64,000 nucleotides of DNA from the IMG/VR virus record IMGVR_UViG_2775507207_000001, positions 8,017 through 72,016 of that record; one strand, written 5' to 3'. Of this stretch, positions 27,384 to 54,820 are shown one piece after another. The position numbers and the translations under genes are program-made. How positions within the stretch are numbered: position 1 is the first letter of the stretch; each line of letters begins with the position of its first letter. The stretch is from a virus. Lineage: Duplodnaviria > Caudoviricetes. The notes under the pieces were generated by a model. That model was not told the origin of the DNA, ran no database searches, and saw only the letters and a list, made by a program, of their open reading frames with translations.

Positions 27384-27399
27384 CTGTTTATCCATACAG
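27384..27399. promoter_or_regulatory. LexA (SOS) box upstream of the methylase
   Basis: CTGTTTATCCATACAG matches CTGT-N8-ACAG. Confidence 0.8.
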
Positions 27400-28403: not shown

Positions 28404-29153
28404 TCATTTCTGCTTACTCTCGGCTGGGTCACAGCCGTTATGTTCGTCATGTGGTTTTTCAGCTGATGGGTTCGGCCTTATAAGCTCTGCCCCCTGATTC
28501 CTGACGCTGCCCACTGCTTTGCCAACCGCATACCACTCAAAGTCCTCCACAGGCTGGCAACATTCCTTCGCTATTTCCTCGGCCCGGGCTGGAGTAAGGT
28601 AGGGGTCGATCCACTCCCTGGCATGCTCAGGTGTCAGCACCAACGGCTTGCGGTCGTGGATGTCCACCATGCCCTGATCACTGGCAGCGGTGATGATCAC
28701 GAACCCATCGCCGTCCTGGGGATCCAGGCCAGGATGAATCTGGGCTAGTGCGCCAAAGAACATGGGCTTCTGACTCTTCAGGCGAATGAAGTAGGGCTGC
28801 TTTCTCTTCGGATCGTCAGGGTCTTTAACCCACTCATACCACCCTTCACTCGGCACCAGGGCTCGGCCATTCGGCCAAAGTTGCTTAAAAAACTTTCCCG
28901 TGGTGACCGTCTCTACACGGGCGTTAATCGGGTCGGGGCGTTTGCCCTTGGCCCAGAACGGCGCCCATCCCCATTTGACTGCATCGATATGCAGCCCGTC
29001 CTCTGCGGCGTGCAGCAACTGAACCCGTGTCGACGGAGCGACGTTGTAGCGATCAATTGGCTGAGCGTCATAGCCGCTGAATAGCTCTATTTGGGGGCTC
29101 AGTTCTTCAATGAAGATCGCCATCCCTTCGTACTGCACAAATCGTCCGCACAT
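28404..29153 (-). CDS. SOS response-associated peptidase (SRAP/YedK/HMCES family)
   Basis: MCGRF start, YNVAP, INARVE, WYEW, IHDRKP. Confidence 0.95.
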   Translation of the reverse strand: MCGRFVQYEGMAIFIEELSPQIELFSGYDAQPIDRYNVAPSTRVQLLHAAEDGLHIDAVKWGWAPFWAKGKRPDPINARVETVTTGKFFKQLWPNGRALVPSEGWYEWVKDPDDPKRKQPYFIRLKSQKPMFFGALAQIHPGLDPQDGDGFVIITAASDQGMVDIHDRKPLVLTPEHAREWIDPYLTPARAEEIAKECCQPVEDFEWYAVGKAVGSVRNQGAELIRPNPSAEKPHDEHNGCDPAESKQK

Positions 29154-29253: not shown

Positions 29254-29679
29254 ATGAGCTTCACCATTTTAGGTCCTATCGCCGAGGCAGGCGTGAAGCT
29301 GCCTATGTGTTCGTTCCAGGTTCCGGCTGGCTTCCCTTCGCCGGCAGCGGATCATATTGAGCAGCACATCTCATTGGATGAGGTCCTGAATATCCGCGCA
29401 CCGCATGTGTACCTGGTAGCCATCACCGGGGAAAGCATGCAGGGGATTGGTATCTTCGAAGGCGATCTCGCGGTGGTGGATCGTGCCATTGAGCCGGCGC
29501 ACGGGCATGTGGTAGTGGCTCTGCTGAACAATGAGCCCGTCTGCAAGCGCCTATGTAAGCGCGGCCGAGAGGTAGTCCTTTTGTCAGAAAATCCCAAATA
29601 CCCGGCGCGATACGTTCTCGAAGGGGATGAGCTATCAGTCTGGGGCGTGATCACCAGCACAGTGCGCAGCCATGTCTAA
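29254..29679 (+). CDS. umuD: UmuD/RulA, Pol V subunit (S24 peptidase)
   Basis: VPAGFPSPAAD cleavage site, GESM, VCKRL. Confidence 0.92.
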   Translation: MSFTILGPIAEAGVKLPMCSFQVPAGFPSPAADHIEQHISLDEVLNIRAPHVYLVAITGESMQGIGIFEGDLAVVDRAIEPAHGHVVVALLNNEPVCKRLCKRGREVVLLSENPKYPARYVLEGDELSVWGVITSTVRSHV

Positions 29680-30949
29680 GCAGCAACCGACCCTTGCGCT
29701 GGTCGACTGCAACAGCTTCTATGCCAGTTGCGAGCGAGTATTCCGGCCGGACTTGGCGAAGGTGCCCATCGTGGTGCTGAGCAATAACGACGGCTGTGTC
29801 ATTGCTCGCAGCTACGACGCCAAGCCATTCATCAAGATGGGCGAGCCGTATTTCCAGATCAAGCACAAGCTCAAGCAACACGGCATTGTCGCGTTCTCCT
29901 CCAACTATGCGCTGTACGGCGACATGAGCGAACGCGTCATGAGTCTGATTGAGGCGATGGTGCCGGCAGTTGAGGTGTACAGCATCGATGAGGCATTTGC
30001 CGATCTGACCGGTGTCGGTGGTTTGGATGCCTTAGGCCGGCAGATCCGCGCCCAGGTACTTCGCTGCACCGGCATACCTGTTGGTGTCGGTATTGCTCAT
30101 ACAAAGACCCTGGCGAAGCTGGCAAACCACACTGCGAAGCGCCTGCAATCGCAGACCGGTGGTGTGGTCAATATCACCGATCCGGTTAAGCGGGACTGGG
30201 TACTGCGTAATACGGACGTGGCGGAGGTGTGGGGCGTTGGCCGAAAGATGAAACTCCACCTCGATGCGATGGGAATCAAGTCTGCAATGGATTTGGCGAA
30301 GGCGGACCCCTGGACGCTCCGTAAGAAGTTCAGCGTTGTGATCGAGAAGACGGCCAGGGAGCTGGGCGACACGCCTTGCTTGGAGCTGGACGACCCGGAT
30401 CCGCCGAAGCAGGAGATCTGCTGCAGCCGGATGTTCGGCCAGCGGCTGACGGAGCTGCCGCCTATCAAGGAAGCGGTGGCCACCTACATGATGCGAGCTT
30501 CTGAAAAGCTCCGCGCCCAGAACTCGCTGTGCAAGACGGTGCGCGTGAGCATCCGTACCGGCATGTTCAATCCAGAGGAGGCGAAGTATGCCAACGGAGT
30601 GGTGGTAGACATGCCATATCCCACCGATGACGTGCGACTGCTAACAAAGGCGGCTGTTGATGCGGTCGATCGTATTTACCGACCAGGCTTCAAATACAGT
30701 AAGGCTGAAGTGATGCTGCTCAACCTGTGTCAGCCCGGCGAGTATACCGATGATCTTTTCGCTATTTCGCAGCCTGCTGAGTCCACCCGTGTGATGACAG
30801 TGCTAGACGAGATTAATGGTCGATGGGGGAGGGGAACGCTGCGGTCTGCCAGCGTTCCCAGCAACCCTGCTTGGGCTATGCGCCGGGAGATGATGAGCCA
30901 CAGTTATACAACGAGAGTGGATCATTTATGGAGAGTCCGTTGCGAGTGA
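29672..30949 (+). CDS. umuC: UmuC/RulB Y-family DNA polymerase
   Basis: DCNSFYASCE, SNNDGC, YSIDE, WAMRRE..S..YTT. Confidence 0.95.
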   Translation: MSKQQPTLALVDCNSFYASCERVFRPDLAKVPIVVLSNNDGCVIARSYDAKPFIKMGEPYFQIKHKLKQHGIVAFSSNYALYGDMSERVMSLIEAMVPAVEVYSIDEAFADLTGVGGLDALGRQIRAQVLRCTGIPVGVGIAHTKTLAKLANHTAKRLQSQTGGVVNITDPVKRDWVLRNTDVAEVWGVGRKMKLHLDAMGIKSAMDLAKADPWTLRKKFSVVIEKTARELGDTPCLELDDPDPPKQEICCSRMFGQRLTELPPIKEAVATYMMRASEKLRAQNSLCKTVRVSIRTGMFNPEEAKYANGVVVDMPYPTDDVRLLTKAAVDAVDRIYRPGFKYSKAEVMLLNLCQPGEYTDDLFAISQPAESTRVMTVLDEINGRWGRGTLRSASVPSNPAWAMRREMMSHSYTTRVDHLWRVRCE

Positions 30950-32598: not shown

Positions 32599-32984
32599 CC
32601 ATTCAATGAGTTGCAGACTGTAAGCTCGTCTGGCCGATGAGTGGCCTCAATCATTTACGCTTATGCTGTATGAATATACAGGATTTTGCAATCAATGAAT
32701 GGCTATATTTTGGCTTTCAGATTTTGAGCACCTATCCCAGTCTGCTACCAGCATTTTTTAGAGAGGTGCCTCAAGCGAGTGGGCATATTCGAGAATCTTG
32801 CGGACCCGAAGTGACGCGACCATGAACTCTGTGCGTAGTGGCGGGATGATCAAGGACTGGTTGCTTAGGAATTGCTACGGGAGCTGATGCGCTACGCCTT
32901 GTATGCAGAGCCTGCTCAACATTTGGGGAGGACTATGTCCAATACATCATCGAAGCAAGGTACAGACTGAATTGACCGAACCCC

Positions 32985-33544: not shown

Positions 33545-33826
33545 TTACTGAATGTTGCCGGGCGAATCCAACACCTTCACCACATCATCAACTACCGCCT
33601 TGACCATCTCCTGCAAGTAGTGCGACGCCCACGCATAACGGTCCGTCTCCTTGGTCATCGCCGCATCTTCTGCGAGCAGCTTGGCGACATGGAGAAGATC
33701 GGAGGCGTGGTGCAGGGCTTCTTGCAGGGAAACACCGCTGTTGACGCGGAATAGAGGTTGGTCGGAGTGAAAGGAGAAGGGGGTGACGCCGAGGGTGGTT
33801 AACGCAGGCGGATTTGTAGCGGTCAT
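33545..33826 (-). CDS. DUF3077-family protein
   Basis: LFRVNSGVSLQEALHHASDLL...AWASHYLQEMVKAVVDD; GGGAG RBS. Confidence 0.8.
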   Translation of the reverse strand: MTATNPPALTTLGVTPFSFHSDQPLFRVNSGVSLQEALHHASDLLHVAKLLAEDAAMTKETDRYAWASHYLQEMVKAVVDDVVKVLDSPGNIQ

Positions 33827-33880
33827 CGGTAAAACTCCCATATCAAGTGAGAGCTACCACGTTCGTTATCAGGCGAATGG

Positions 33881-35072: not shown

Positions 35073-35444
35073 CTATTTTGACCTACGCCCACTAGCCGGA
35101 AACAACCCTCGGATCACCCCAAGAAACGCCGCAAACAGATTGATTGAAGTCGCCGTAGTGATAGCAATCAACACATTGTCCGAGAACGGCGCTTTGCCCG
35201 AGTAATACGTCGACCACCCATTCCACACCAGTAAAACCGCCCAGAAGATCACACCACAAGCGGCAAACCAAAACGCCCGACCCGCATATTTCTTGCGCAG
35301 TTGCCTTTCGGCCTTCTGGTCTTTGAGGTTCTGGTTTCTTTCATCGTCGGTGCCTATGGCTTGCTCGCCACCGGCTTGGGTGTCCTGGTCAGGCCCTGCC
35401 GCGGGGGGCAGGGTGAGTTCCAGGTTGTCGAGTTCTTCACTCAC
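35073..35444 (-). CDS. Putative membrane toxin paired with the Panacea antitoxin
   Basis: GTG start overlaps the antitoxin stop; two TM helices after a basic stretch. Confidence 0.65.
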   Translation of the reverse strand: MSEELDNLELTLPPAAGPDQDTQAGGEQAIGTDDERNQNLKDQKAERQLRKKYAGRAFWFAACGVIFWAVLLVWNGWSTYYSGKAPFSDNVLIAITTATSINLFAAFLGVIRGLFPASGRRSK

Positions 35445-35925
35445 GGATGCGGCTCTTTGGGTGAATGAGTGTTGCCATGTCTTCCCAGTCGATGGCGGAA
35501 CCGTCGGCGCCCTTGAGGGCCCAGGCTGTGCCGTCCTCGTGGGAGAGGTTGGACAGTTGGGTGCCAGACCACTTGCCGTATTTGTTGATGATCCGGTCAA
35601 TCAAACGATGGGTGTAGGTGTCGCTCTCAGGCACTCTCGGTGTCACGAACACAATATCTTCGGCGTCGGGCTTCAGATTGCTGAGCAACGACGTCACCGG
35701 ACGATTACCGTAGGATTTCAACTCATGGTAAAGCGACGGGATGACCGGACCATATTGCCAGCGGGCAAAGTGATCATCCATAAGGGGCTGATCCCGTTCG
35801 CGCAAATGCCAGGACTGCGTATAAAACAGCAGTTTTTGCAGCTTCATGGGCGTCAGGCCCGAAAGCTTGCCTTCCTTCGCACGTTCAATGAAGGCGTTAG
35901 CGACAGCTAGCGCTGAATAAGCCAT
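35437..35925 (-). CDS. Panacea/SocA (DUF4065) antitoxin
   Basis: LTPMKLQKLLFY, WQYGPVIPSLY, LSNLSH..GTAW. Confidence 0.9.
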   Translation of the reverse strand: MAYSALAVANAFIERAKEGKLSGLTPMKLQKLLFYTQSWHLRERDQPLMDDHFARWQYGPVIPSLYHELKSYGNRPVTSLLSNLKPDAEDIVFVTPRVPESDTYTHRLIDRIINKYGKWSGTQLSNLSHEDGTAWALKGADGSAIDWEDMATLIHPKSRIRE

Positions 35926-36046
35926 GAGCACCTCCGTCGTTGCTGGCTACGTTGTCCAAGAGTTTTATACATAGGCCTTGAGTTGTCGACATGCAAGGTG
36001 TCGACCGGCAGCAATACCAAGCTGTCGGATAATAGAGCGTCGATAA

Positions 36047-36062: not shown

Positions 36063-36158
36063 TATTTTGATTCAAGTTAAGTGAAAGACGCGTGTTTAAT
36101 GCATAAATATGCAAATTAGCATTTGCCAACCCCAAAAACTCCCGTCACTATCCGCGCT

Positions 36159-36893
36159 ATGCAAAAACGCAACGTTTCTATCGTCTTAAGAGAGCTGCTG
36201 GACCGCGACCGGATCTCCCCCACGGAGCTTCACCGGCGCACTGGCGTGCCTCAATCCACACTGTCCCGGATCCTCAGCGGCAAGATCGTTGATCCGTCGG
36301 ATAAACACATCTCCCGTATCGCCGAGTATTTCCGCGTGAGCACTGATTACCTGCGCGGGCGCGCGGCAGTGGGTGCTTTGCGCGATGACGGGCGTGACCC
36401 GATGCATTCGGAACTCAAGGACATAAGCCTGTGGGACGACGACACCCCCGTTAATGATGACGAGGTGTCGATCCCCTTTCTGCGCGAGGTTGAATTGGCT
36501 GCTGGATCAGGAAGATTCGTCATCGAGGAAAGCGAGAAGGCCAGCCTGCGGTTCGGCAAGCGCAGCCTGCGGCATAACGGTGTGCAGTTCGACCAGGCCA
36601 AGTGCGTGACGGTACGCGGCAACAGTATGTTGCCGGTGTTGCGCGACGGCGCCACGGTAGGGGTGAATGCCGGCAAGAGCGGCATTGGCGATATCGTCGA
36701 TGGTGACTTGTATGCCATCAATCACAACGGCCAGTTGCGGGTTAAACAGCTCTACCGCCTGCCTTCCGGCATTCGCCTGCGCAGCTTCAATCGTGATGAG
36801 CACCCCGATGAGGACTACAGCTTCCAGGAGATCCAGGATGAGCAGATCAGTATCCTCGGTCATGTTTTCTGGTGGGGCATGTACGCCCGCTAA
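36159..36893 (+). CDS. prtR: PrtR-like repressor (HTH plus S24 peptidase)
   Basis: HTH (VPQSTLSRIL), ELAAGSG cleavage site, GNSM, RVKQL. Confidence 0.88.
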   Translation: MQKRNVSIVLRELLDRDRISPTELHRRTGVPQSTLSRILSGKIVDPSDKHISRIAEYFRVSTDYLRGRAAVGALRDDGRDPMHSELKDISLWDDDTPVNDDEVSIPFLREVELAAGSGRFVIEESEKASLRFGKRSLRHNGVQFDQAKCVTVRGNSMLPVLRDGATVGVNAGKSGIGDIVDGDLYAINHNGQLRVKQLYRLPSGIRLRSFNRDEHPDEDYSFQEIQDEQISILGHVFWWGMYAR

Positions 36894-36910: not shown

Positions 36911-36937
36911 AAACCCGCCCATGTGCGGGTTTTTTTT
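36911..36937 (+). terminator. Terminator after prtR
   Basis: AAACCCGC-CCATGT-GCGGGTTT with T tract. Confidence 0.8.
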
Positions 36938-36979: not shown

Positions 36980-37053
36980 AATGCATTAATGCATTTCCAT
37001 GGTAAAAATAAATGCATCTGTGCATTGACTGTATATGCATACATGCATATTCT
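36980..37053 (+). promoter_or_regulatory. Sigma70 promoter of the tailocin operon with ATGCAT operator-like repeats and a near-SOS box
   Basis: TTGACT (37025-30), 17 bp spacer, TATTCT (37048-53); CTGTATATGCATACAT; several ATGCAT palindromes, also present upstream of prtR. Confidence 0.75.
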
Positions 37054-37060
37054 TCACCTC

Positions 37061-37413
37061 AAGCCAGCCAACAAGGCCTGGTGGAGGCGGCAAGGATGCT
37101 GCCAAGGAAGACAAGGAAGGCACGCAACATCGGCAAGGACGCCATCGAAGCGATGGCAGGGATGCCAGGCAACACCGGCAAGGATGCCGACGCTCTTTAG
37201 TTTCAACGCTTCAACAACAGGCAGCGATGAACCGGCCTTAACGGTTCAGAGGGTTGGCAACTGACCCGGGTGTGCAGCGTAAAGCACCAGAAGCAGTTAT
37301 CCGGCAGACAGGGATCGTGGTCGGAAAAACATCGAGGAAAGGACCGTACCGCGCCAGTAGCGCCGAAAGTCCGAGGACAGCATTACTGAAAAGCCCGGGC
37401 GACCGGGCTTTTT
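37061..37413 (+). ncRNA. Structured leader RNA with GGA hairpins, a boxA-like site and a terminator
   Basis: Four stem-loops with (A/G)GGA loops at 37086-37189; CGCTCTTTA at 37191-99; terminator at 37390-37413. Confidence 0.6.
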
Positions 37414-37483
37414 GGAATGCCTACCTACCCAAGCATTTGTAAATGAAATACGGACTATTTATTGCTCAGCCAGGAGGCGTGAC

Positions 37484-37822
37484 ATGACAAATGAACAGCA
37501 AGCGTTAGCGGAAATGCCTATCTGGCTGGTGATCGTATTGGCGGTGATCGGCGGGGTCTCAGGTGAAATGTGGCGCGCCGATAAAGAAGGCGCACGTGGC
37601 TGGTCGCTGATCCGCCGATTGGCCCTGCGTTCCGGGGCGTGCATGGTCTGTGGGGTGTCGGCCCTGATGCTGTGCTACGCCGCCGGCATGTCGATCTGGA
37701 CCGCCGGCGCCATTGGTTGCCTGACCGCCATGGCCGGTGCCGACGTGGCCATCGGCCTTTATGAGCGATGGGCGGCCAAGCGCATCGGGATCAACCAAGG
37801 CTCCGGCCAGGACCCGCACTAA
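37484..37822 (+). CDS. Tailocin holin
   Basis: AGGAGG RBS; TM segments; homologous to the prophage holin. Confidence 0.88.
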   Translation: MTNEQQALAEMPIWLVIVLAVIGGVSGEMWRADKEGARGWSLIRRLALRSGACMVCGVSALMLCYAAGMSIWTAGAIGCLTAMAGADVAIGLYERWAAKRIGINQGSGQDPH

Positions 37823-37845
37823 TCGTTGCAAGGACGCGACTTAAA

Positions 37846-38361
37846 ATGACGTTTATCGAAAAGCCATCCCAACTGCCCCAAGCCATCGGCGCGGTGCTGC
37901 ATGCGGCCTTCCCGGACATCAAGGTCGGCAGTCACCAGGACTTTCAAGGCGATGCTGAACAAACCGGCGTAATGGTTACGGTCGAAGGCAATGGCCCGGG
38001 CATTCGTTCTCGCGAGGGGCGCAAGGCCCACGTTCTGGCCATTTCACTCAGGGCCATGGTCGCCCCCGGTGCATTGCCGTTCGACGCCTGCGACCTGGCC
38101 AGCCAACTCATGGACCTGGTGCTGGATAACCGTTGGAACCTACCCCAGGCACAGTGCGATTTGCCGGCGAATATCGTCGCTGCGCCCGCTGTGCGCACGT
38201 CCGTGCAAACGGACTACGACACCTGGACGGTTTCCTTCACGCAAACCCTCTATCTGGGGCCGACGTTACTCGACGATCCCACAGGCCAACCGCTATTTGC
38301 CTGCACCTGGGACGTCTCCAACATCGACGACCCGGCCCAATACAAGCCACTGGCGGAGTAG
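37846..38361 (+). CDS. Tail completion/terminator-like protein
   Basis: WTVSFTQTLYLG; position before the spike gene. Confidence 0.6.
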   Translation: MTFIEKPSQLPQAIGAVLHAAFPDIKVGSHQDFQGDAEQTGVMVTVEGNGPGIRSREGRKAHVLAISLRAMVAPGALPFDACDLASQLMDLVLDNRWNLPQAQCDLPANIVAAPAVRTSVQTDYDTWTVSFTQTLYLGPTLLDDPTGQPLFACTWDVSNIDDPAQYKPLAE

Positions 38362-38364
38362 CCC

Positions 38365-38976
38365 ATGTTCGACGCGCTGTTACGCATGCAATTGGGACCG
38401 ATCGTCGAACGCCTGGCCGAGATGGAGTCCCAGCTCGAGGACCTCTACCGCCGCGCCGAGAGCTTCTGCCGGATCGGTATTTGCCAGCAGGTTGATGCGG
38501 CCAGCAACACCTGCAAGGTCAGCCACGGTGACCTGCTCACCCCGGCGATCCGTTTTTTCAACCCCAGTGCCGGAGCACAAACCGAAACCCGCATTCCCAC
38601 CGTGGGTGAGCAATGCCTGCTGCTCAACTACGGCGGGGGGGAGGGCGGTGTGCAATCCGTGGCCCTGTTCGGCCTTAACAGTGATCGCTTCCCGCCAGTC
38701 TCCAGCGTGGCGACGCTGACCCGGCGCCGACATCAAGACGGCACCCAAAGCGACTACGACGACGCCAGCCATACCTTCAACTGGGTCAACGGCCCGACCA
38801 CCTTCAGCGGTTCCCGCGAACAGGTTGACGTCAAAGTCGGCGCCGCCAGCCTGACCCTCAGCGCCCAGGGCATCACCCTGCAAGTCGGTGGCACCAGCCT
38901 GTTGCTGGATGCCGGCGGCGCGCACTTCAGCGGCCCGGTGGTGGACCATCAAGGACGCGTCATCAGCCCCCGATAA
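38365..38976 (+). CDS. R-tailocin baseplate spike V
   Basis: RIPTVGEQCLLL OB-fold motif. Confidence 0.85.
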   Translation: MFDALLRMQLGPIVERLAEMESQLEDLYRRAESFCRIGICQQVDAASNTCKVSHGDLLTPAIRFFNPSAGAQTETRIPTVGEQCLLLNYGGGEGGVQSVALFGLNSDRFPPVSSVATLTRRRHQDGTQSDYDDASHTFNWVNGPTTFSGSREQVDVKVGAASLTLSAQGITLQVGGTSLLLDAGGAHFSGPVVDHQGRVISPR

Positions 38977-38985
38977 GGACACCCC

Positions 38986-39318
38986 ATGCTCGGAATCGAT
39001 AGGAACACCGGGGCGGCCGTCGACGACTGGCTGCAATTTGTGCAGCGCGCCACCCGAGCGCTGACCACCCCTGTGGGCACTCGCCAGAAGCGCCCGTTGT
39101 ACGGCTCGCTGATCCCGCAATTGCTCGGCCAAAACCTTGGTGACGACCTGTTGATCCTCGCCCAGAGCCACGCCGCGCAAGCCTTCTACAACACCCACAA
39201 CGGCATCGGCGACTTCGACCCTCAGGTCATCGTCGCCACCCGCCAAGGCGCCGGCCTGCTGTTGCGGTTTGCCGGCACCTGGAAAAACCGCCAACAATCC
39301 TTCGAGGTCGTGACATGA
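38986..39318 (+). CDS. Baseplate W/gp25
   Basis: LTTPVGTRQKRPLYGS. Confidence 0.85.
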   Translation: MLGIDRNTGAAVDDWLQFVQRATRALTTPVGTRQKRPLYGSLIPQLLGQNLGDDLLILAQSHAAQAFYNTHNGIGDFDPQVIVATRQGAGLLLRFAGTWKNRQQSFEVVT

Positions 39319-40310
39319 GCATGCTGATCCCCGGCCAGAACCAACTGGCGGAACCGGCCATCATCAAGGTCGATGAGTTCGAACCGTTGCTGGCCGAATT
39401 CAAAGCGTTTGTCATCGACTACGTCGCCACCCGCGCACCGCAAAGCGCAGCCAAACTCCAGGTCAGCCTCGACAACGAAAGCGAACTGCTGACCCTGGCC
39501 CTGGAAGCCTTTTGCGTGCGTCTGCAAACCCATGAGCGCAAATACAACGCCCGCATCAAGCAGATGCTGGCGTGGTGGGCCACCGGCAGCAACCTGGACG
39601 CACGCCTGGCCGACATGGGCCTGGAACGCCAAGTACTCGACCCAGGCGACCCAGCCGCGTTCCCGCCGGTGCCGCCCACCTTGGAAAGCGACGACGACGC
39701 CCGCCTGCGTTACTACCTGGCGCCCCACGCCCCAGCGGCGGGCTCGCGCATGCAGTATCGCCGTGAAGTGTTCACCTTGGGCGAGCGCCCAGCAGTGAAA
39801 GTGCAAAGTGCGACGCCCGGTGTGGTCACGGTCACCTACACCTTCGACCCGGACGGTTACGCGGCCCAGGTCAAGGACGGCAACGCTCGGCGCACCGCAC
39901 CGGGTGAAGTCATGGTCACTGTGCTTTCCAGGGAGGGCGACGGCACGCCGTCTGCCGACTTGCTTGACGGTGTACGTCGACATTTTGCACGGCCGGATGT
40001 AAGGCCGGAAACCGATCTTGTCAGCGTTCAAGGCGCACAGATTCAACCTTATAAAATTCGCGTGGTGGCCATGATCAACGCCGGCCCAGACTCGGGGCTG
40101 ACCCAAGTGGCGGCGCAGAAACTGCTGCAAGACTACGCAGAGTCCTGCCACCGCCTGGAAGGGCGGGTGGACCCCAGCTGGATCGACTACGCCATCCACA
40201 GTGCTGGCGCTGCGCAACTGCACATCCTCGAACCGCTGGCGCCGATTGTCAGTACCGCGTTCCAGGCCCCGTACTGCACGGGCGTCGAGGTGGAGGTGCG
40301 CACACTATGA
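39315..40310 (+). CDS. Baseplate J
   Basis: ATGSNLD, ESDDDARLR, DVRPETD motifs. Confidence 0.88.
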   Translation: MSMLIPGQNQLAEPAIIKVDEFEPLLAEFKAFVIDYVATRAPQSAAKLQVSLDNESELLTLALEAFCVRLQTHERKYNARIKQMLAWWATGSNLDARLADMGLERQVLDPGDPAAFPPVPPTLESDDDARLRYYLAPHAPAAGSRMQYRREVFTLGERPAVKVQSATPGVVTVTYTFDPDGYAAQVKDGNARRTAPGEVMVTVLSREGDGTPSADLLDGVRRHFARPDVRPETDLVSVQGAQIQPYKIRVVAMINAGPDSGLTQVAAQKLLQDYAESCHRLEGRVDPSWIDYAIHSAGAAQLHILEPLAPIVSTAFQAPYCTGVEVEVRTL

Positions 40311-40945
40311 GTGAACCCAACGCAAGTTTGCTGCCGGCCAACAGCTCGCCGCTGGAAAAGGCCCTGGACCTGGGTTTCGGCAGATTGCTTGAGCGCGTCA
40401 CCCCGCCGTTTCCGGCGCTGATGAACCCGCTGTACACCCCCAGCGAATTCCTGCCTTACCTGGCCGCCGACCGCGGCGTCAGCGAATGGGATGCCGAGGC
40501 CAGCGAAGCGGAAAAACGCCTGACCGTGGCTTTGTCCTGGCAGATCCAGCGCCAGGCAGGTACGCCCAAGGCGCTGAGCCACGCGGTGGAATCATTGGGC
40601 TTCACGCCCAATATCAGCGCCTGGTACCAGCAACGTCCGCTGGGCGTGCCTTACACCTTCGACGTGCAGGCGATCATCGGGCGCAGTTGGTCCAGCGGCG
40701 ACCACAACCGGCTGATTCGCCGCATCAATGCAGCCAAAAGTGAGCGCGATCAGGCGACGATCACCATCGTGCATGAAACCGAAGGCCAGCTCGCGCTCAC
40801 GCAAGTGCTCGACGCGCCTTTAAGCGACGGCGAGTTCTACCTGAACGGCGCGTTGCCGGAATTGGCGCTGGTGGCTCGGCTCAACAGTGCCGGGGTTGCC
40901 CAGCACTACACCATTAACGATTACGACCTCAGGGCGCAGCCATGA
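40307..40945 (+). CDS. Tail protein I
   Basis: SLLPANSSPLE, FLPYLA, AGTPKAL. Confidence 0.85.
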   Translation: MSEPNASLLPANSSPLEKALDLGFGRLLERVTPPFPALMNPLYTPSEFLPYLAADRGVSEWDAEASEAEKRLTVALSWQIQRQAGTPKALSHAVESLGFTPNISAWYQQRPLGVPYTFDVQAIIGRSWSSGDHNRLIRRINAAKSERDQATITIVHETEGQLALTQVLDAPLSDGEFYLNGALPELALVARLNSAGVAQHYTINDYDLRAQP

Positions 40946-41472
40946 CAGATGAAATCACGCGCCTGGTGCGCTTCACCTCCAAAGGTTTGGATGAAGTGCT
41001 ACAGGCAAAGAACCAGGGCCTCAAAGGCGAAATCACCCACATCGGCGCCGGCACCGGCCGCTACAACCCCGACGGCACGGAAGTGGCCTTGCGTGACGAG
41101 CGTCAACGGGTGGCCATCGTCGATTACGAAGACCTGGGCGAACGCCAACTCAGGATGGCCGCGCTATTTGACGGCGACGGCGAGTATGAGATTGGCGAGT
41201 TCGGGTTTTACCTCGCCAGCGGCACCTTGCTGGCGGTGTATTCCGTGGCGGGGAAGTTGCTGACGTATAAAGCGGCGGCGGCGCGGGTGCTGCAGAAGTT
41301 TACGCTGGATGTTTCGCCGTTGCCGGCGGATAGCGTGACGATTGTGGTGGGGAGTGAGAACTTGAATCTGTTGTTGGCGGAGGAGATCGCGATTATGGCG
41401 GCGGCTTCGGTTGGCAATATGTCCCGCCACGTTGATTTGATGTTTCGGGTTATGCAGCTCGAAGCGAAGTAG
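40942..41472 (+). CDS. Tail fiber proximal (collar) protein
   Basis: ITHIGAG...EIGEFGFYLASGTLLAVYS baseplate-attachment domain only (176 aa). Confidence 0.75.
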   Translation: MTDEITRLVRFTSKGLDEVLQAKNQGLKGEITHIGAGTGRYNPDGTEVALRDERQRVAIVDYEDLGERQLRMAALFDGDGEYEIGEFGFYLASGTLLAVYSVAGKLLTYKAAAARVLQKFTLDVSPLPADSVTIVVGSENLNLLLAEEIAIMAAASVGNMSRHVDLMFRVMQLEAK

Positions 41473-41516
41473 TAGCACTGACAAAAGTGCTGGAAAGATT
41501 AACTGACAGGGAGTTG

Positions 41517-42302
41517 ATGATGGGACTTGAAACGACTATCACGAAAGTTGTGGACGCATGTAATAAGCTTACGGAAACGGTTACCAACCAAATTGGGAAG
41601 ATTGATGCGCGGGTAGAGGCCGCTTCAAATCAGTTTACTGCTTGGCGTAATAGTGTGCAGGCGAAGGATATTAATGGTCGTGCGCTTTATAAACAGGATA
41701 TTGATCTCACTGGGTTGTCTACCGACGTATTTTACCCTGTTTGGTGGACTATGCCCGGTAACGAGGCGGGTGAAACAGAAATTACCGTCTCGCGGGTATA
41801 TTATCGAGACCAGGAAAAAGCGCCCTTTGGTCAAGGGATTTATCACATCGCTGGCTTGAACTTGCAGCTTGAGGGTGTCGGATATATATGGAATGGTGAT
41901 GCTAACTTTCTAGCTATTAAGCGGATCTCCCAAACTTACCGTGAAACGGTGAGAGGTGTTTCGTTTGGTATGATTTGTACAGCGCGTGCCATTACTGGGC
42001 TCAAACCTATGTACTTAGGTTTGGTCGCGGGGCAACAAACGAACGCTCCACAGTTTTCTGGGATGTACCTGAGGGGTGGGCTGAGCTATACCATCACTAA
42101 AACGTTTGATTATCCTGTTAACTACAGCAAGTTAGATACTGAAGTGATTATGAAGGATGACGTTAACGCTGATTGGGAAGTTCGTTGGGCGGTGAAACCT
42201 TATAGCTTGACTCAGGCTGACGCTGTGCTCGGCAAAGCCTTTGAAGAGAAGCGCCTGGCCTATTCCCACGATAACGACGCTCGCTATACCGCCAAGGTTT
42301 AA
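41517..42302 (+). CDS. Tail fiber distal / receptor-binding protein
   Basis: N-terminal coiled coil, lower GC, fiber position. Confidence 0.65.
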   Translation: MMGLETTITKVVDACNKLTETVTNQIGKIDARVEAASNQFTAWRNSVQAKDINGRALYKQDIDLTGLSTDVFYPVWWTMPGNEAGETEITVSRVYYRDQEKAPFGQGIYHIAGLNLQLEGVGYIWNGDANFLAIKRISQTYRETVRGVSFGMICTARAITGLKPMYLGLVAGQQTNAPQFSGMYLRGGLSYTITKTFDYPVNYSKLDTEVIMKDDVNADWEVRWAVKPYSLTQADAVLGKAFEEKRLAYSHDNDARYTAKV

Positions 42303-42313
42303 GGACTGATCAA

Positions 42314-42616
42314 ATGACTTTGTTTATCGGAAAGTTGGTAACTCCTGCGGGCGACTCGTTGATCAACGTACCCGCCAGCCCGCAGACCCTCAAAGGTCTG
42401 GGCTTTAGCGATGAGGCCGCTCAGACGCTGATCGAGAACGCCGCGGCCGCAGCCGCACTCGCTAGCACTATTGCTGCCCGCCGTTCTGCCTATGTCAGCG
42501 AAGCTGACCCGATGTACCTCGAATGGCAATTCGACGGTACGGCTGAGAAGGAAAAAGAATGGCGAGCCAAAGTAGCCGAAATCAAGGCGCGCTACCCTTT
42601 GCCAGAAGAAAAGTAA
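42314..42616 (+). CDS. Tail fiber chaperone
   Basis: RRSAY..EADP...W...VAEIKARYP. Confidence 0.75.
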   Translation: MTLFIGKLVTPAGDSLINVPASPQTLKGLGFSDEAAQTLIENAAAAAALASTIAARRSAYVSEADPMYLEWQFDGTAEKEKEWRAKVAEIKARYPLPEEK

Positions 42617-42703
42617 CCCCCACCGCGAAAGCGGTTTTTTTTCGCCTCCCCAAAGCCCCTCCCCGCAGGGGCTTTTGCATTTTCCACCCGGAGATTTCCA
42701 CCC

Positions 42704-42877
42704 ATGCCCACCCGCCAAACCTACACCGTCCTCATCCCATTCCCCATCGGCAACGGCCATTGGTCCACCGCCGGCGAGGAGCTGGAACTGCTCGACGTCG
42801 AAGCATCCGCCCTGCGCACCGCTGGCCGCCTGGAACTGACCAGCGTCCTCAACTCCACCCCCAAGAAGGCTGAATAA
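42704..42877 (+). CDS. Small hypothetical protein (57 aa) before the sheath gene
   Basis: GGAG RBS; MPTRQTYTVLIPFP...KKAE; strong host codon bias; below the ORF track cutoff. Confidence 0.7.
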   Translation: MPTRQTYTVLIPFPIGNGHWSTAGEELELLDVEASALRTAGRLELTSVLNSTPKKAE

Positions 42878-42879
42878 CC

Positions 42880-44046
42880 ATGGCAGAAGTCCTGAACTTC
42901 GAGCACAACGGCATCACTGTGAATGCCACTGAATCCCCCGAGGCCATGGGTGGCCTTGGCGATAACGTCATCGGCCTGGTCGGCACTGCACCGAATGCCC
43001 ATGCGTCGATCCCGAAAAACGCGCCGTTTCGCATCAACAGCTTCACCACCCAGGCGCTGCTGGACCCTACCGGCACCGAGTCGGGCACCTTGTTCCAGGC
43101 GGTGTACCAGATCCTCAAAGTGGTCAAGGTGCCGGTCTATGTCGTGATCGTCGAAGAGGGCGCTACCCCGGCCGACACGATCAACAATGTGATCGGCGGC
43201 AACGACCCGGTCACCGGCCGAAAACTGGGCCTGGCGGCCCTGAGCAGCGTGCCAGAAGACCTGACCATCATCGGCGCTCCAGGCTTTACCGGCACCAAGG
43301 CTGTGGCCGGTGAGTTCGCCTCCTTCGGCAAACGCATCAAGGCCCGTGTGGTGCTCGATGGCAAAGACGCTTCCGTTGCCGACCAAGTGACCTACAGCGG
43401 CGAACTGGGCGGGGCCGACCTGGGCTTCGACCGTTGCCTGCTGGTGCACAACATGCCGTCGGTGTACTCCAAGGCCGCGAAGAAGAACGTGTTCCTGTCG
43501 CCATCCTCGCTGGCCATCGCCGCACTGGCCAAGGTCAAGCAGTGGGAAAGCCCGGGTAATCAGGTGACCTTCGCCGAGGACGTTTCCCGCGTGGTCGAGT
43601 ACAACATCCTCGACACCTCCACCGAAGGCGACCTGCTCAACCGCTATGGCGTGAGCTACTACGCCCGCACCATCCTCGGCGGCTTCTCGCTGCTCGGTAA
43701 CCGCTCCATCACCGGCAAGTTCATCAGCTACGTCGGCCTGGAAGATGCCATCAGCCGCAAGCTGGTCAAGGCCGGCCAGAAAGCCATGGCCAAGAACCTC
43801 ACCAAGTCCTTCATGGACCAAGAGGTCAAGCGCATCAACGACTGGCTGCAAACCCTGGTGGCCGACGAAACCATCCCCGGCGGCAGCGTGTATCTGCACC
43901 CAGAACTGAACAGCGTCGAGAAGTACAAGAACGGCACCTGGTTCATCGTCATCGACTACGGCCGCTACGCGCCGAACGAACACATGGTTTATCAACTCAA
44001 CGCCCGCGATGAAATCATCGAGCAGTTCCTGGAGGACGTTCTCTAA
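42880..44046 (+). CDS. R-tailocin sheath
   Basis: FEHNGI, VIGLVGTAP, WESPGN, LLGNR. Confidence 0.92.
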   Translation: MAEVLNFEHNGITVNATESPEAMGGLGDNVIGLVGTAPNAHASIPKNAPFRINSFTTQALLDPTGTESGTLFQAVYQILKVVKVPVYVVIVEEGATPADTINNVIGGNDPVTGRKLGLAALSSVPEDLTIIGAPGFTGTKAVAGEFASFGKRIKARVVLDGKDASVADQVTYSGELGGADLGFDRCLLVHNMPSVYSKAAKKNVFLSPSSLAIAALAKVKQWESPGNQVTFAEDVSRVVEYNILDTSTEGDLLNRYGVSYYARTILGGFSLLGNRSITGKFISYVGLEDAISRKLVKAGQKAMAKNLTKSFMDQEVKRINDWLQTLVADETIPGGSVYLHPELNSVEKYKNGTWFIVIDYGRYAPNEHMVYQLNARDEIIEQFLEDVL

Positions 44047-44552
44047 TGTTTACCAACCGAGTCAGACAGGCCATTGCGGCCACCCTTCAAGGCCTGCCGT
44101 TGTCCGCAACCGTGGAAGAGTTCACCCCGCCGAAGATCGAGTTCGACATGGAGCCCATGTCCGGCGGGCGCTTTATCGCCGAGGAAATGGCCAAGAGCGG
44201 CAAGGTGCTCAATGCCAAGCTGGTGCTGCAAGGTGCCGGCCCGGAAATCATGCTGGCTCTGGGCGTGCGCATGGGCGACGACATTTTGCTGAACGTGCGT
44301 GAAGCCGGCCAAGACCAGGACGGCAAGACCTACTTCACCTACCACACCGTGGGCGGCAAGCTCAAATCCCTGGAGGAGGCGAAGCTGAAAATGGGCGACA
44401 AGGCCACCACCACGCTGGAGCTGTCCTGCCGCACCTACAACCGTCTGGAAAATGGCATTTCGGTGATCGACATCGATGTGCGCACCCAGAAGTTCGTGCT
44501 CAACGGCGTCGACATTCTGGGCGATGCGCGCCGCGCCGTGCTGATGCCTTAA
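44046..44552 (+). CDS. R-tailocin tube
   Basis: Follows the sheath; 168 aa with FII-like features. Confidence 0.88.
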   Translation: MFTNRVRQAIAATLQGLPLSATVEEFTPPKIEFDMEPMSGGRFIAEEMAKSGKVLNAKLVLQGAGPEIMLALGVRMGDDILLNVREAGQDQDGKTYFTYHTVGGKLKSLEEAKLKMGDKATTTLELSCRTYNRLENGISVIDIDVRTQKFVLNGVDILGDARRAVLMP

Positions 44553-44585
44553 GGGCCGGCGCAATCTGAAGCGAGCACGGTCAAG

Positions 44586-44670
44586 GTGGGAGCTGGCTTG
44601 CCTGCGATGCAGGCGACTCGGTATCCCTGGAGCATCGAGTGGATGCCATCGCAGGCAAGCCAGCTCCCAC
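44586..44670. repeat. REPIN (inverted REP doublet)
   Basis: GTGGGAGCTGGCTTGCCTGCGATG and its perfect reverse complement at 44647-44670. Confidence 0.9.
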
Positions 44671-44733
44671 AGGGGCCGTGCTCAGGTTTAGATTTTTTGC
44701 ACTTTTCAACACCGCTCAACAAGGAATTGCCCC

Positions 44734-45306
44734 ATGGCCTGGATGCCTCCGTTGCACATCCTGCTGTCCCCGATCACCGCCGATACCGGTGCAATGATCG
44801 AGCAGGTTCAACTCAAGCCGTTGTTCTACGCCGCGCAGAAAGACGCGCTGGCCCGGGCCGGTGATGACGAGGACGACCAGTTCTTCGAACTGGCGAAACT
44901 CGCCACCGGCCTGTCGGAAAAAGAGCTCGACCAACTCAAGCGCCCGGACTACGTGAGCATTGCTCAGTACGTACACGAAATGTCGACCCGGCCAGCGTCG
45001 TTCTTCCTGAAGGCACAAGACGTGACGCCCCACGACCAACCCGTCCCTCTGCTCTTGCCCTTGGAAGCCGCTGGCCGAACCTTCACCGAACTGCCCCTGG
45101 AAATGCCCGCCCTGCGCGCTACCAAGGTGATGAAGAAACTCGCCACCAACAAAGAGCGCGCCGAGTTCATCACGGCCCATTGCACCGGCCTGATGATCCC
45201 CGACCTGGCCGGTTTGACCGTGCCCGACTGGACGGAACTGCAGGAGCGTATCGACGATTTTTTAAATCAACCGGCGGCCTTCTTTCGCAGCGCGACATCG
45301 AAGTAA
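44734..45306 (+). CDS. Tail assembly chaperone
   Basis: Position; LDQLKRPDY; T TTT TTA slippery site at 45258-64. Confidence 0.8.
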   Translation: MAWMPPLHILLSPITADTGAMIEQVQLKPLFYAAQKDALARAGDDEDDQFFELAKLATGLSEKELDQLKRPDYVSIAQYVHEMSTRPASFFLKAQDVTPHDQPVPLLLPLEAAGRTFTELPLEMPALRATKVMKKLATNKERAEFITAHCTGLMIPDLAGLTVPDWTELQERIDDFLNQPAAFFRSATSK

Positions 45307-45428
45307 TCCTCGATGTGGTGCCGCTGATCTACTCGGTCAATGAGGCGGAGATCCTCGACTGGGACGCCGGAAAAGCATTGCGCCGCTACGACATCGCGAT
45401 CACTCGCCTTGGCGTCAAACAGGAGTAA
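45258..45428 (+). CDS. -1 frameshift extension of the chaperone
   Basis: Open -1 frame (…ILDVVPLIYSVNEAEILDWD…) downstream of the slippery heptamer. Confidence 0.65.
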   Translation, partial: FFKSTGGLLSQRDIEVILDVVPLIYSVNEAEILDWDAGKALRRYDIAITRLGVKQE

Positions 45429-45433
45429 GCGGG

Positions 45434-47263
45434 ATGCAGGACAATTATTCGCTCGCCTATGCCGTCGCCAGGAATGGCCGGGATGCGTTCGGCAGTACAG
45501 GCGGCGCACGTGACGCCGATATCCTTAGCCCTGGCGCGTTGTCGGTTGGCAGCTCTACCCCGTCAACAGATTTGGCTGACTTGTCCGGAACCGTTGCCGC
45601 ACTCACCAACGCAACGCTCAAACTTGATGAGCTCGCACTGTCGCTCGGCTCATTGCGTGAGGGTGTGGATTCTCTCGACACGGCGCTGTCGTCGCTGAGG
45701 GCCATTGAGGTGCGTTCACCCAAGCTGGGTGAGCAGGCAGAATCGAAGAGGGTGTCTGAATCCGCCTCGACTACCTCAGAGAATTTGCGCCATACCCGCG
45801 AGGCCATGACGCTGGGCACCGCGCAAATAATCGACCTGGCAAGTGCGCTGCAGCATTCAGGCAGCCAACTGAAGTTTGATAAAACCGCAACGTCGGAAAA
45901 GTCGATCAAGGTGCTGCGCGAGGAGTCCAGCGAAAGCGGCAAACGTTTCTCTACGACCCTGGATGCCACGCCGGTATTGGGCGAAGCGCTTTGGCTGAAA
46001 GCCAAGGCGGGCCTGATGGACAGCGCCAGTGACGTGGCTAAAGATTCACCGGCTCTGGCTGGCGCGATTAAAACGGCTGGAGCCATTACGCCGGTGTTTT
46101 CCAGCTTTTTTTCAAGTGTGGGAGACACGATAAAAACCCGCGTTGCTGGCAACGTGGTTGATGCGACGCTGGGTAAGCTTCCCGGTGTTGGCAAGCTGTT
46201 CAAGGATGGCGGTTCTGCGAAAGATAAATCGTGCTGTTGTGCGACGGCCACTCAGCACCCCATCGAAAGTCCTCGTTCGCGCTCGCAGGGCTCGCGCGGG
46301 AAAAAGAGCCCTCGTCAGTCGAAGTCGCAAAAAAAGCAGAGCGTTCAAAACACTCAGCGCGCGCAGATCAGGCAGCAAAAACAGCCGCTAGTGCCCAAGA
46401 CAGCCTCGACCAAACGATCGCCTGCCAGCAAAAAAGGCGGTGTATTTTCGAGGCTGCTAACCAGCCTCGAACGTGATGCAAAGGCATTGTTACCTGCGCC
46501 GTTCTTAGGCTTCGATGCGGGGCGGACGGCTCAAAGGTTGCAACCGCGTGCGGTCGTGGCGAACCGTCCAAGCAAGAGCAGGTCTTCAGGCCAGTCGACA
46601 GCGAGCAGAGGCCCTGGGTTGATCGAGGCAGTAGAGCGCAAGCTTATCCCCTTGCCTTCCGAAGGCCGGGTAACTGCTGCTGCGCCCCATACTCTCCATT
46701 TCAGTCGTGAGGCTTTGCCTGGCCCGCTGAAGATGCCTTCCAACCCGCTGGGAACAGTGAGCAAATTGGGAGTGGCCGGTGCTCGCCGCCTTGGCCCGAT
46801 GAGGTACGCCGACACTGCTTTTGATGTGATTCAGGGCGTACGCAACGGGGATGTCAAGGCGGTCGGGACTGGCCTGAGCAGCGCCGGTGGCGCCTGGGCT
46901 GGAGCGTCCGCCGGTGCCGCGCTCGGTACCCTGGTTTTCCCCGGTGTCGGCACCGCAATCGGCGGCGCCATCGGTGGCCTGCTGGGCAGCGAGGCGGGCA
47001 GCTGGCTGGGTGACAAGGTGTTTGGCGCAAATGATCGCCTACCTGCGCCCAACGCGCTGAGCAAGGAACTCAACAGTGCCCGTACCGACAATGTCCAGGT
47101 CACGCTCTCACCGAGTATCCAGATTACCGGCGTTAACCCGGCGGATGCCCAGCAAGTGGTCAATCAAGTGATCCAGGCCCTGCAGTTCCAATGCGTGCCG
47201 ATGGTCACCGATTCCCTGGGCATTCGACGCAACGCGGCATTGGCCGATCCAGGAGGTGATTGA
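45434..47263 (+). CDS. R-tailocin tape measure-like protein
   Basis: Position between chaperone and U; C-terminal glycine zipper. Confidence 0.75.
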   Translation: MQDNYSLAYAVARNGRDAFGSTGGARDADILSPGALSVGSSTPSTDLADLSGTVAALTNATLKLDELALSLGSLREGVDSLDTALSSLRAIEVRSPKLGEQAESKRVSESASTTSENLRHTREAMTLGTAQIIDLASALQHSGSQLKFDKTATSEKSIKVLREESSESGKRFSTTLDATPVLGEALWLKAKAGLMDSASDVAKDSPALAGAIKTAGAITPVFSSFFSSVGDTIKTRVAGNVVDATLGKLPGVGKLFKDGGSAKDKSCCCATATQHPIESPRSRSQGSRGKKSPRQSKSQKKQSVQNTQRAQIRQQKQPLVPKTASTKRSPASKKGGVFSRLLTSLERDAKALLPAPFLGFDAGRTAQRLQPRAVVANRPSKSRSSGQSTASRGPGLIEAVERKLIPLPSEGRVTAAAPHTLHFSREALPGPLKMPSNPLGTVSKLGVAGARRLGPMRYADTAFDVIQGVRNGDVKAVGTGLSSAGGAWAGASAGAALGTLVFPGVGTAIGGAIGGLLGSEAGSWLGDKVFGANDRLPAPNALSKELNSARTDNVQVTLSPSIQITGVNPADAQQVVNQVIQALQFQCVPMVTDSLGIRRNAALADPGGD

Positions 47264-47646: not shown

Positions 47647-47851
47647 AGTGCGAAGTATTGCCGGTGACTCGGTCAACCTGTTGCTCTACCGCGAGTTGGG
47701 CCGTTGCGATGACGCCGCCGAAGAAACCCTTTGGCGCTTGAACCCCGAACTCGGCGAATACGGCCCGGTACTGCCAGCCGGTGTCTGGGTGATCGTGCCT
47801 GAGATACAAGCACGACCGGCCGCCATGCGGCCCGTTCTGGCCTGGGATTGA
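47639..47851 (+). CDS. Tail protein X
   Basis: GDSV...LNPEL...LPAG...WD. Confidence 0.85.
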   Translation: MRRVRSIAGDSVNLLLYRELGRCDDAAEETLWRLNPELGEYGPVLPAGVWVIVPEIQARPAAMRPVLAWD

Positions 47852-47860
47852 GGAGGCTGC

Positions 47861-48871: not shown

Positions 48872-48916
48872 TCACCACCGCTGCACGTTCACCACTGACT
48901 CGCTACAGGAACCAGG

Positions 48917-49114: not shown

Positions 49115-49206
49115 TCCCGTCTCGACCTGCCTTGTACGCAGCACCATAGCCGTTGCACCCCACAACCCGCCTTCGCGGGTTTTTTATTGTTCATGGAGAA
49201 CACTCG

Positions 49207-49698: not shown

Positions 49699-49706
49699 GA
49701 GACGCC

Positions 49707-50057: not shown

Positions 50058-50086
50058 CGGTCGCCGATGAGTTCTGGCACGAACTG

Positions 50087-51931: not shown

Positions 51932-51982
51932 CGCCGCCTCCACCCCGCCGTAGTGCGGGGTTTTCTTTGCCCGGAGAATCAT

Positions 51983-54761: not shown

Positions 54762-54820
54762 CGTTCCTGCTCTTCAACCTGCCCGCCGAGTGCGGGCTTT
54801 ATTTCGCCTGAAGGAAAGCC

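Follow-up and report, generated by a model that had tools for sequence, protein, structure and literature searches.

A conserved structured leader RNA ahead of a Pseudomonas tailocin operon: a candidate elongation-control element of phage origin

In phage lambda the PR' promoter is followed by a short terminated leader, the 6S RNA, with the terminator tR' placed just before the first lysis gene, S, in a system worked by Q. Leaders with several GGA sites under the control of CsrA or RsmA are known from hcnA of Pseudomonas protegens and pgaA of Escherichia coli, and in the case of pgaA the binding of CsrA promotes Rho termination. The alpBCDE genes of P. aeruginosa, with AlpA, share with the locus described here an SOS-controlled promoter, a short terminated leader and a lysis gene (PMC7969949). 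Both Q and AlpA are protein antiterminators loaded through DNA. A close counterpart is found in phage HK022, where putL and putR are described as cis-acting RNAs that lie just downstream of a repressor-controlled lambdoid early promoter, have no phage-encoded partner protein and precede a long operon with terminators downstream (PMC9378689). The subject of this report is the untranslated leader of a tailocin operon in a stretch of 64,000 nucleotides (nt) from a virus of the Caudoviricetes (IMG/VR record IMGVR_UViG_2775507207_000001, positions 8,017 to 72,016), the whole of which is referred to as the window. Within the leader lies a four-helix RNA of 116 nt, the core, which shares the setting of the put RNAs and for which antitermination is proposed.

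The operon lies on the + strand and, according to scans with PHROGs and Pfam, runs for more than 25 kb from the holin onward. The holin and a phrog_1072 gene come first, P2-like genes for baseplate, fibre, sheath, tube and tape measure follow, and a lambda-like tail set comes after these. Since P2-like tail genes are followed by a lambda-like set, the cluster is a combined R-type and F-type tailocin. A search for regulators covered 39 open reading frames (ORFs) from 36123 to 62433, compared with PHROGs and/or Pfam and several of them with both; PrtR was the only one found, and no activator, antiterminator or N-like protein was detected among the 39. This agrees with the preliminary description of the locus, in which no activator or antiterminator gene had been seen. 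Where the lambda and alp systems have Q and AlpA, the tailocin cluster encodes no such protein and has a conserved RNA instead. The leader is read here as a cis-acting RNA for the control of elongation (antitermination), of phage origin and with a clade-specific input from RsmA/E, a reading that we regard as about evenly poised between right and wrong. Environmental pseudomonads are without PrtN, and a published study of P. protegens has left room for 'other important mechanisms of regulation' (PMC12066065). A conserved, structured leader with a terminator before the holin is an obvious candidate for a further layer of control, and the 516-bp reporter of that work already spans it. A literature search found no account of the leader RNA or of put-like RNAs in Pseudomonas, nor any of a link between Rsm and tailocins or of tailocin leaders with an Rsm array.

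Leader anatomy and the conserved core

The leader and its immediate surroundings comprise the following features.

36123..36893 (+): prtR, LexA/cI-type autocleavable repressor (Pfam HTH_3 and Peptidase_S24; PHROG phrog_4, transcriptional repressor)
36911..36937 (+): prtR terminator hairpin followed by a run of eight T, by reading of the sequence
36981..37053 (+): operator and promoter region, with ATGCAT-type palindromes in an AT-rich stretch, -35 hexamer at 37025-37030 and -10 hexamer at 37048-37053
37063..37082 (+): 'hairpin 0', the 5' hairpin, its loop of the CAACAA type; at -8.9 kcal/mol the fold is not significant by itself
37086..37189 (+): GGA array, six copies of the RsmA/E consensus CANGGANG in four hairpins that present A(N)GGA and at two linear sites
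37191..37200 (+): boxA, CGCTCTTTAG, directly 3' of the GGA array
37215..37330 (+): conserved four-helix core RNA (P1-P4), 116 nt, 138 bits with covariance model R1, with covariation and phage homologues
37341..37372 (+): P5 stem (GGAC/GUCC) around an invariant GCGC-CAGUA-GCGC hairpin
37380..37420 (+): 3' module ahead of the holin, in form like an intrinsic terminator: a long hairpin, GC-rich at its top, and a five-U run
37484..37822 (+): holin, gene 1 of the operon (Pfam Phage_holin_3_5, 174.8 bits)
37825..37840 (+): hairpin that covers the ribosome-binding site of gene 2 and presents CAAGGACG, -5.8 kcal/mol
37846..38361 (+): gene 2, function not assigned (phrog_1072; without a Pfam family)

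The leader, of approximately 355 nt, is untranslated and lies between approximately 37060 and the holin start at 37484, a stretch without a credible ORF; an RNA species of about 350 nt is predicted. Taken whole (363 nt), it folds better than shuffled sequences (z = -3.4). The 5' hairpin is kept in tailocin and phage leaders, with differing stems, as judged by reading. A leader peptide or small protein was considered and rejected: overlapping ORFs begin upstream of the promoter or are without conservation, one conserved ATG is lost in locus L040, and insertions and deletions in the array are not multiples of three.

Promoter and boxA, core and terminator module occurred together in 74 of 80 loci of the P. 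fluorescens lineage sampled by their holin genes, the six exceptions being five second holin copies without a leader and one further locus, L046. An independent sample of the genus contained the module in 33 of 34 loci, the 34th being a prophage copy. The preliminary description had taken the leader for a conserved region of control at the RNA level, which is upheld by these counts and by covarying helices. It had not singled out the core, which lies downstream of boxA and is nearly invariant among the 74 loci, with loops and junctions highly conserved in primary sequence beside covarying stems. Two natural variants were seen: in L248 a truncated core is fused to the holin start and the terminator is lost, and in L242 the 3' part of the core is replaced.

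A covariance model of the core, R1, was built from 11 sequences. Within the genus it matched in 90 of the 151 genomes sampled, with 113 matches in total and two or three in each of 20 genomes, the unpublished genome G101 contributing two; in a family-wide sample it matched in 10 of 151 genomes, three of these matches being weak but genuine-looking, and in a class-wide sample it matched in none of 150 genomes outside the genus. One assembly titled Gordonia sp. (JBNQGB010000002.1) contains a tailocin locus typical of Pseudomonas, with a holin 84% identical, and is probably mislabelled or contaminated. Among the 4227 models of Rfam, riboswitches included, none reached its gathering score in the leader, and with E values of up to 10 the core gave just a weak match to RsmY. 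The core is at present unannotated or, in one GenBank record (EU982300.1), wrongly given as the beginning of a 'Com' gene. In that record the CDS annotated as 'Com' (2025-2333) begins inside the leader RNA and crosses the terminator hairpin; the Com zinc-ribbon domain itself starts at an internal ATG, 2151, past the hairpin.

Covariation across tailocin loci, proposed earlier as a check, favours an RNA fold. In 34 diverse sequences, 95% of the cells of P1-P4 were paired, against 85.8% in shuffles, and compensatory changes were present in 17 of 27 pairs; the covariation score of 0.354 (against 0.181) was reached by none of 500 shuffles, and controls with slid partners were 30-43% paired. The changes in P1 are plain in the raw sequences (GAACCG/CGGUUC, GAAUCA/UGAUUC, GAGUCG/CGACUC). 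For P5 (37341-37344 with 37369-37372), all four stem pairs were compensatory in a plain MAFFT alignment of 73 sequences. An explanation at the DNA level, through extra operators or a recombination site, or one through chance hairpins, could appeal to the report of Mavrodi et al. that the prtR-hol segment is conserved and flanks a recombination hotspot (PMC2647930). It is close to untenable in view of compensatory changes that preserve RNA helices, conserved G-U pairs compatible with the + strand only, a clustering of sites far beyond chance and an orientation that is always sense to the operon.

Comparison with phage records by blastn placed the core in the Q8r1-96 tailocin record, in an unclassified phage contig and in temperate phages, namely PseuP_224 (host P. 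protegens), Orimi01 with three Orisa phages, and Aurca01 and Medea1 (hosts P. syringae). Each phage record has one copy. In PseuP_224, Orimi01, Aurca01 and Medea1 the core heads an early operon running away from the immunity region; it lies directly after or near a cI-type repressor and is divergent from cro and the replication genes, which is the position of lambda nutL and HK022 putL. The first gene after the leader varies from phage to phage (a GerE-type regulator, a CsrA homologue, a Com zinc ribbon or unknown small proteins), and therefore no fixed protein partner is encoded beside the core. That the core is independent of such a factor is suggested by these varying genes and by a reporter of P. 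protegens CHA0, described below, which is active in a strain deleted for its tail cluster. In size and number the core departs from the put RNAs, which measure approximately 70 nt, have two stem-loops and occur twice per phage; the core has 116 nt and four helices and occurs once. Suppression by put of distant downstream terminators works through the beta' zinc-binding domain of RNA polymerase.

Two of the phage loci hold further features. In PseuP_224 the first gene after the leader is an unannotated ORF of 101 amino acids (4234-4536) with a GerE/LuxR helix-turn-helix, and a similar one is present in locus L263. Downstream of the core of Orimi01, at approximately 4140-4290, a long-range stem of 14 bp surrounds a tRNA T-arm-like GGTTCGAATCC, which is a possible second structured RNA.

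The boxA, a putative site for NusB-NusE, lies directly after the GGA array, as had been described, and has the GCUCUUUA core of host-type rrn leaders. In G001, a genome with a leader 99% identical to that of the window, CCGCTCTTTAACAA stands 153 nt upstream of all six 16S genes, and the leader boxA shares with this rrn boxA the 9-mer CGCTCTTTA, its first nine letters. All 74 core-bearing leaders of the P. fluorescens lineage have boxA. It is present in eight of 21 phage or prophage leaders read, there upstream of the 5' hairpin, and on this distribution it is a frequent, non-obligatory companion of the core. The leader resembles lambda nut and the rrn leaders in its boxA, identical over nine letters to that of the host, and the order of boxA and then hairpin in the eight phage and prophage leaders is that of boxA and boxB in nut. 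It departs from both in its hairpin, which in the window lies 5' of boxA, in having no N-like gene and no constant first downstream gene, in that many members of the leader family do without boxA, and in the addition of a large structured RNA.

The promoter, TTGACT-17-TATTCT (37025-37053), is the sole sigma70-like site found by the promoter scan between 36000 and 39000. A sigma70 promoter had been claimed at this place and is present; its description as strong was overstated, with nine of 12 positions matching and the -10 hexamer matching at four of six. An operator-like ATAAATGCAT motif at 37008-37021 is of a type reported for P. protegens CHA0 (PMC12066065). A LexA-box-like sequence with one mismatch lies in the promoter spacer (37029-37044), and the LexA pattern has three matches in the whole window, against 0.02 expected. 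The other two matches, at 32666-32681 and 27384-27399, comprise one that is perfect and one with a single mismatch. A LexA site has been reported upstream of the SBW25 tailocin (PMC8544851). For CHA0, the report describes direct binding of PrtR1 to the promoter, with no PrtN, and an approximately 3 log induction by mitomycin of a reporter carrying the 516-bp prtR1-hol region (PMC12066065). Induction was reported to be the same in a strain deleted for the whole tail cluster, so that passage to the reporter needs no cluster-encoded protein, and the reporter was still inducible without PrtR1 (PMC12066065). A LexA-like box, to judge from the one in the window, can explain this residual PrtR1-independent induction. 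The operator-to-hol distance in CHA0 is given as 391 bp (PMC12066065), a figure that agrees with a leader of the same build without the array, which CHA0 presumably has.

The GGA array and the Rsm network

The four GGA hairpins and the further GGA sites noted in the preliminary description are all present in the sequence. The hairpins are H1 (37086-37103, -10.6 kcal/mol), H2 (37132-37143, -4.3 kcal/mol), H3 (37154-37167) and H4 (37176-37189, -7.4 kcal/mol); a stronger middle hairpin (37141-37157, -12.4 kcal/mol) competes with H2 and H3. Between 37086 and 37189 there are seven GGA and six CANGGANG, four of them in predicted hairpin loops. Across both strands of the window the consensus occurs 42 times, against 41 ± 7 expected, which is the level of chance, whereas the six copies on the + strand fall within 96 nt (37091-37186), where approximately 0.03 would be expected. 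A seventh lies at 37829. The 43 distinct sequences of the array agree in the GGA of all four hairpin loops and one linear site and differ at the N positions, which is exactly the signature of RsmA/E sites and agrees with the earlier designation of the array as Rsm-type.

By the spacing of promoter and boxA the leaders form two classes. In one, with 45 loci, every one from the P. fluorescens subgroup (among them P. lactis, P. salmasensis, P. poae, P. veronii and P. simiae), the spacing is 167-184 nt; in the other, with 29 loci from the koreensis, brassicacearum and related groups, it is 55-94 nt. Four to six CANGGANG sites lie in this interval in the first class and none in the second. What separates the classes is the array, which is therefore an insertion: approximately 100 nt were added to an older leader, behind its 5' hairpin and ahead of boxA, and only in the P. 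fluorescens subgroup. The preliminary description had treated array, boxA and terminator as one device and had offered, as one of two alternatives, read-through licensed by RsmA/E with Nus factors. The array, however, is missing in 29 of the 74 tailocin leaders, which are otherwise identical, and none of the phage or prophage leaders read has it. Read-through in general therefore cannot hinge on RsmA/E, which would provide at most an added input in the P. fluorescens subgroup.

The second site of interest is the AAGGA hairpin at approximately 37825-37840, which does cover a ribosome-binding site as had been described, that of gene 2 and not of the holin. In this position CAAGGANG is present in 46 of 46 orthologues from the array clade, whose proteins are down to 57% identical, and in none of 23 array-less orthologues, which carry plain AAGGAGG or ACAGGA instead. 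From the motif pattern, RsmA/E probably binds both the array and the gene 2 site in the P. fluorescens subgroup. The arrangement is like that of the hcnA and pgaA leaders in having several high-affinity sites in the leader and one over a Shine-Dalgarno sequence; it is unlike them in that the array sites lie 300-750 nt from the regulated ribosome-binding site, beside boxA and an antiterminator-like RNA.

The array also invites comparison with RsmZ, RsmY and RsmX (Rfam clan CL00106), with which it shares its GGA density, A(N)GGA in hairpin loops and a downstream terminator. Seven GGA occur in 146 nt of the leader, against eight each in host rsmZ (135 nt) and rsmY (118 nt). The terminated leader of approximately 355 nt might accordingly be in the main a trans-acting small RNA, an SOS-induced sponge of the RsmY/Z kind in the P. 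fluorescens subgroup, with read-through into the holin as leak. Comparable GGA density and six full sites, four of them in hairpin loops, would suit such a role; a discrete RNA could owe its stability to the strong terminator hairpin at the 3' end, and the PrrB_RsmZ model gives a weak match (22.2 bits, E = 0.009 in a 1-kb search). That score is only half the gathering score of 44 and so below the Rfam threshold; RsmY reaches 15.5 bits against a gathering score of 57, and the rsmX model has no match on the leader strand. Homology to host rsmZ or rsmY beyond the motif was not detected (local score 25, shuffle maximum 28).

The upstream activating sequence of GacA is TGTAAG-N6-CTTACA. None was found within 300 nt of the promoter, the nearest, with three mismatches, lying inside prtR at 36709; window-wide the motif has 10 matches, against 11.3 expected, and host rsmZ does carry it. 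The leader is thus unlike these small RNAs in scoring below the Rfam threshold, in having no GacA sequence, in being under PrtR/LexA control and in being embedded in an mRNA leader. Moreover, the core and the 3' module persist where the array is absent, and sponging therefore cannot explain the conserved part; a discrete RNA is not expected in phages, whose 3' hairpins are without a U run. A sponge as the main function is held to be unlikely.

Two observations concern Rsm genes near leaders of this family. In G001 (C1:4885737-4885871) a genuine rsmZ, with 122 bits and a GacA activating sequence, lies approximately 4.8 kb upstream of the tailocin leader of locus L268. In two prophages headed by divergent members of the leader family, L265 (2171-2359, - strand) and L259 (2000-2164, - strand), a protein of the CsrA/RsmA family (Pfam CsrA, 95 bits) is encoded by the first or second gene of the operon; by tblastn, CsrA was found in two of 277 sources.

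Terminators and the proposed control of elongation

The intrinsic terminator that had been placed before the holin is found at 37380-37420 (-27.6 kcal/mol, z = -6.5). A 6-bp GC stem (37393-37413), extended to 18 pairs and followed by five U, has the form of an intrinsic terminator; the simple promoter and terminator scan did not list it. This 3' module is present in all 74 core-bearing leaders and in 32 of 33 in the second sample, and is conserved along with its flanks. Core and hairpin are separated by a variable segment, in which insertions of 40-110 nt occur. Downstream of the terminator the promoter scan found no promoter for the holin itself (37417-37483), a possibility that the preliminary description had raised; this stretch is variable in length and sequence among loci.

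The polymerase would meet further obstacles beyond the holin. At least five strong terminator-like hairpins lie inside the operon, all on the + strand, and no sigma70-like promoter was found on the + strand of 37400-57399. The hairpins are located as follows.

42622..42685 (+): two intrinsic-terminator-like hairpins (starts 42622 and 42652) in the interval between the fibre genes and the sheath gene
49164..49191 (+): terminator-like hairpin where the R-type tail genes give way to the F-type ones
51942..51971 (+): terminator-like hairpin within the F-type tail genes
54781..54807 (+): terminator-like hairpin ahead of the central tail fibre gene

Under the elongation-control reading, DNA damage would take PrtR, and probably LexA, off the promoter at 37025-37053, and the nascent transcript would fold into the 5' hairpin, boxA and core. 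The core, alone or with host Nus factors recruited by boxA, would then make RNA polymerase resistant to termination, allowing it to pass the 37380-37420 hairpin and the at least five further ones in the operon of more than 25 kb. The data on P. protegens cited above are consistent with this course of events. The source of the repressor, promoter and leader module was the early-left ('PL') region of lambdoid Pseudomonas phages. A block of approximately 100 nt with six RsmA/E consensus sites was inserted in the P. fluorescens subgroup, where the seventh lies on the ribosome-binding site of gene 2, and the array would couple tailocin expression to the state of Gac/Rsm, either by RsmA/E occupancy of the leader and the gene 2 site or by titration of RsmA/E. 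Antitermination by the core and binding of RsmA/E are both inferred; the anatomy, fold and conservation of the leader, its phage ancestry, the identity of its boxA and the statistics of its sites are matters of observation.

Several findings weigh against this proposal. Phage homologues of the 3' hairpin have the same conserved internal loop and are without the U run, so that the original role of the module may have been other than termination; on the sequences compared, only the tailocin versions appear to resemble intrinsic terminators. A terminator that is always bypassed in cis has no obvious benefit. The boxA is missing from 13 of the 21 phage or prophage leaders and from six tailocin-type leaders of other Pseudomonas groups, and L046 has retained array, boxA and terminator and lost the core. 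The co-occurrence of array and gene 2 site contrasts one clade with another and may amount to a single evolutionary event. The alignment from which the core pairs were counted had been fitted to the model, which favours structure. Lastly, the best match of R1 in the HK022 genome scored 9.7 bits (E = 0.16), with no detectable likeness to put.

The core might instead be a sensor, riboswitch-like or bound by a host factor, that switches the 37380-37420 hairpin and so acts as a local attenuator rather than a processive device. Highly conserved loops and junctions beside covarying stems, with a terminator hairpin to follow, are what such a switch would look like, and the inducibility of the CHA0 reporter without PrtR1 leaves room for a second input (PMC12066065). 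However, a LexA-box-like promoter site, such as that reported for SBW25 (PMC8544851), can account for PrtR-independent induction, no Rfam riboswitch matches the leader, and in phages the hairpin after the core is not a terminator. The variable segment between core and hairpin, with its insertions, fits a defined alternative pairing poorly, and a local attenuator leaves the five internal terminator-like sites unaddressed. We doubt this explanation strongly, in the same measure as the sponge.

Recurrence of the 3' module bears on a further possibility, that the leader is an element for RNA processing, stability or translation (a 5' stabiliser, or entry sites for nucleases) and that the 3' module marks cistron boundaries. 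In 21 loci, 15 copies of the module were found downstream in sense, three upstream and one antisense, and it recurs after successive genes; it is copied again wherever cargo genes separate leader from holin, and its conserved internal loop suggests a recognition site. Such an element would leave unexplained the boxA, the fixed position of the core at the transcript start with one copy per element, and the U run gained in tailocin versions, and is thought very improbable. The cargo genes are a feature in themselves: the gap between leader and holin exceeds 600 nt in 22 of the 74 loci, and in L075, L081, L060 and others it holds ORFs that are each followed by another copy of the terminator module. 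These ORFs are presumably tail-fibre-assembly proteins.

A bolder form of the elongation-control proposal can be put forward tentatively, as possible and on balance doubtful. The core would be a novel class of processive antiterminator RNA, protein-independent or Nus-assisted, analogous to put and with an unrelated fold, widespread at the heads of early operons in temperate Pseudomonas phages and captured with the repressor for PrtN-less tailocin operons, with an RsmA/E array gained in the P. fluorescens subgroup. Tailocin firing would then need both DNA damage and the 'high-density' state of Gac/Rsm, or firing would set the Rsm regulon free. As an antiterminator RNA, if it is one, the core would represent a second natural family beside put, common (90 of 151 genomes) and in a genus with good genetics. 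The Rsm array would, if this is true, link an SOS-controlled lysis decision directly to the Gac/Rsm switch of social behaviour, which bears on how many cells sacrifice themselves, and when.

Features upstream of prtR

A full-length match to the C4 antisense RNA (RF01695; 33878-33964, - strand) scored 82.7 bits against a gathering score of 45. It sits between an upstream prophage and prtR, beside a DUF3077 ORF (33545-33838, - strand). Two overlapping ORFs lie on the - strand just upstream of prtR (35073-35928), one with a SocA/Panacea antitoxin domain (35437-35928) and the other, of 174 amino acids, without a family (35073-35597); from this arrangement they form a possible toxin-antitoxin pair. 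The separate prophage occupies the first half of the window (925-30949) and encodes a VapE-type primase and a gpA-type large terminase, followed by an SRAP peptidase (28404-29150, - strand) and a umuC-like polymerase (29672-30946).

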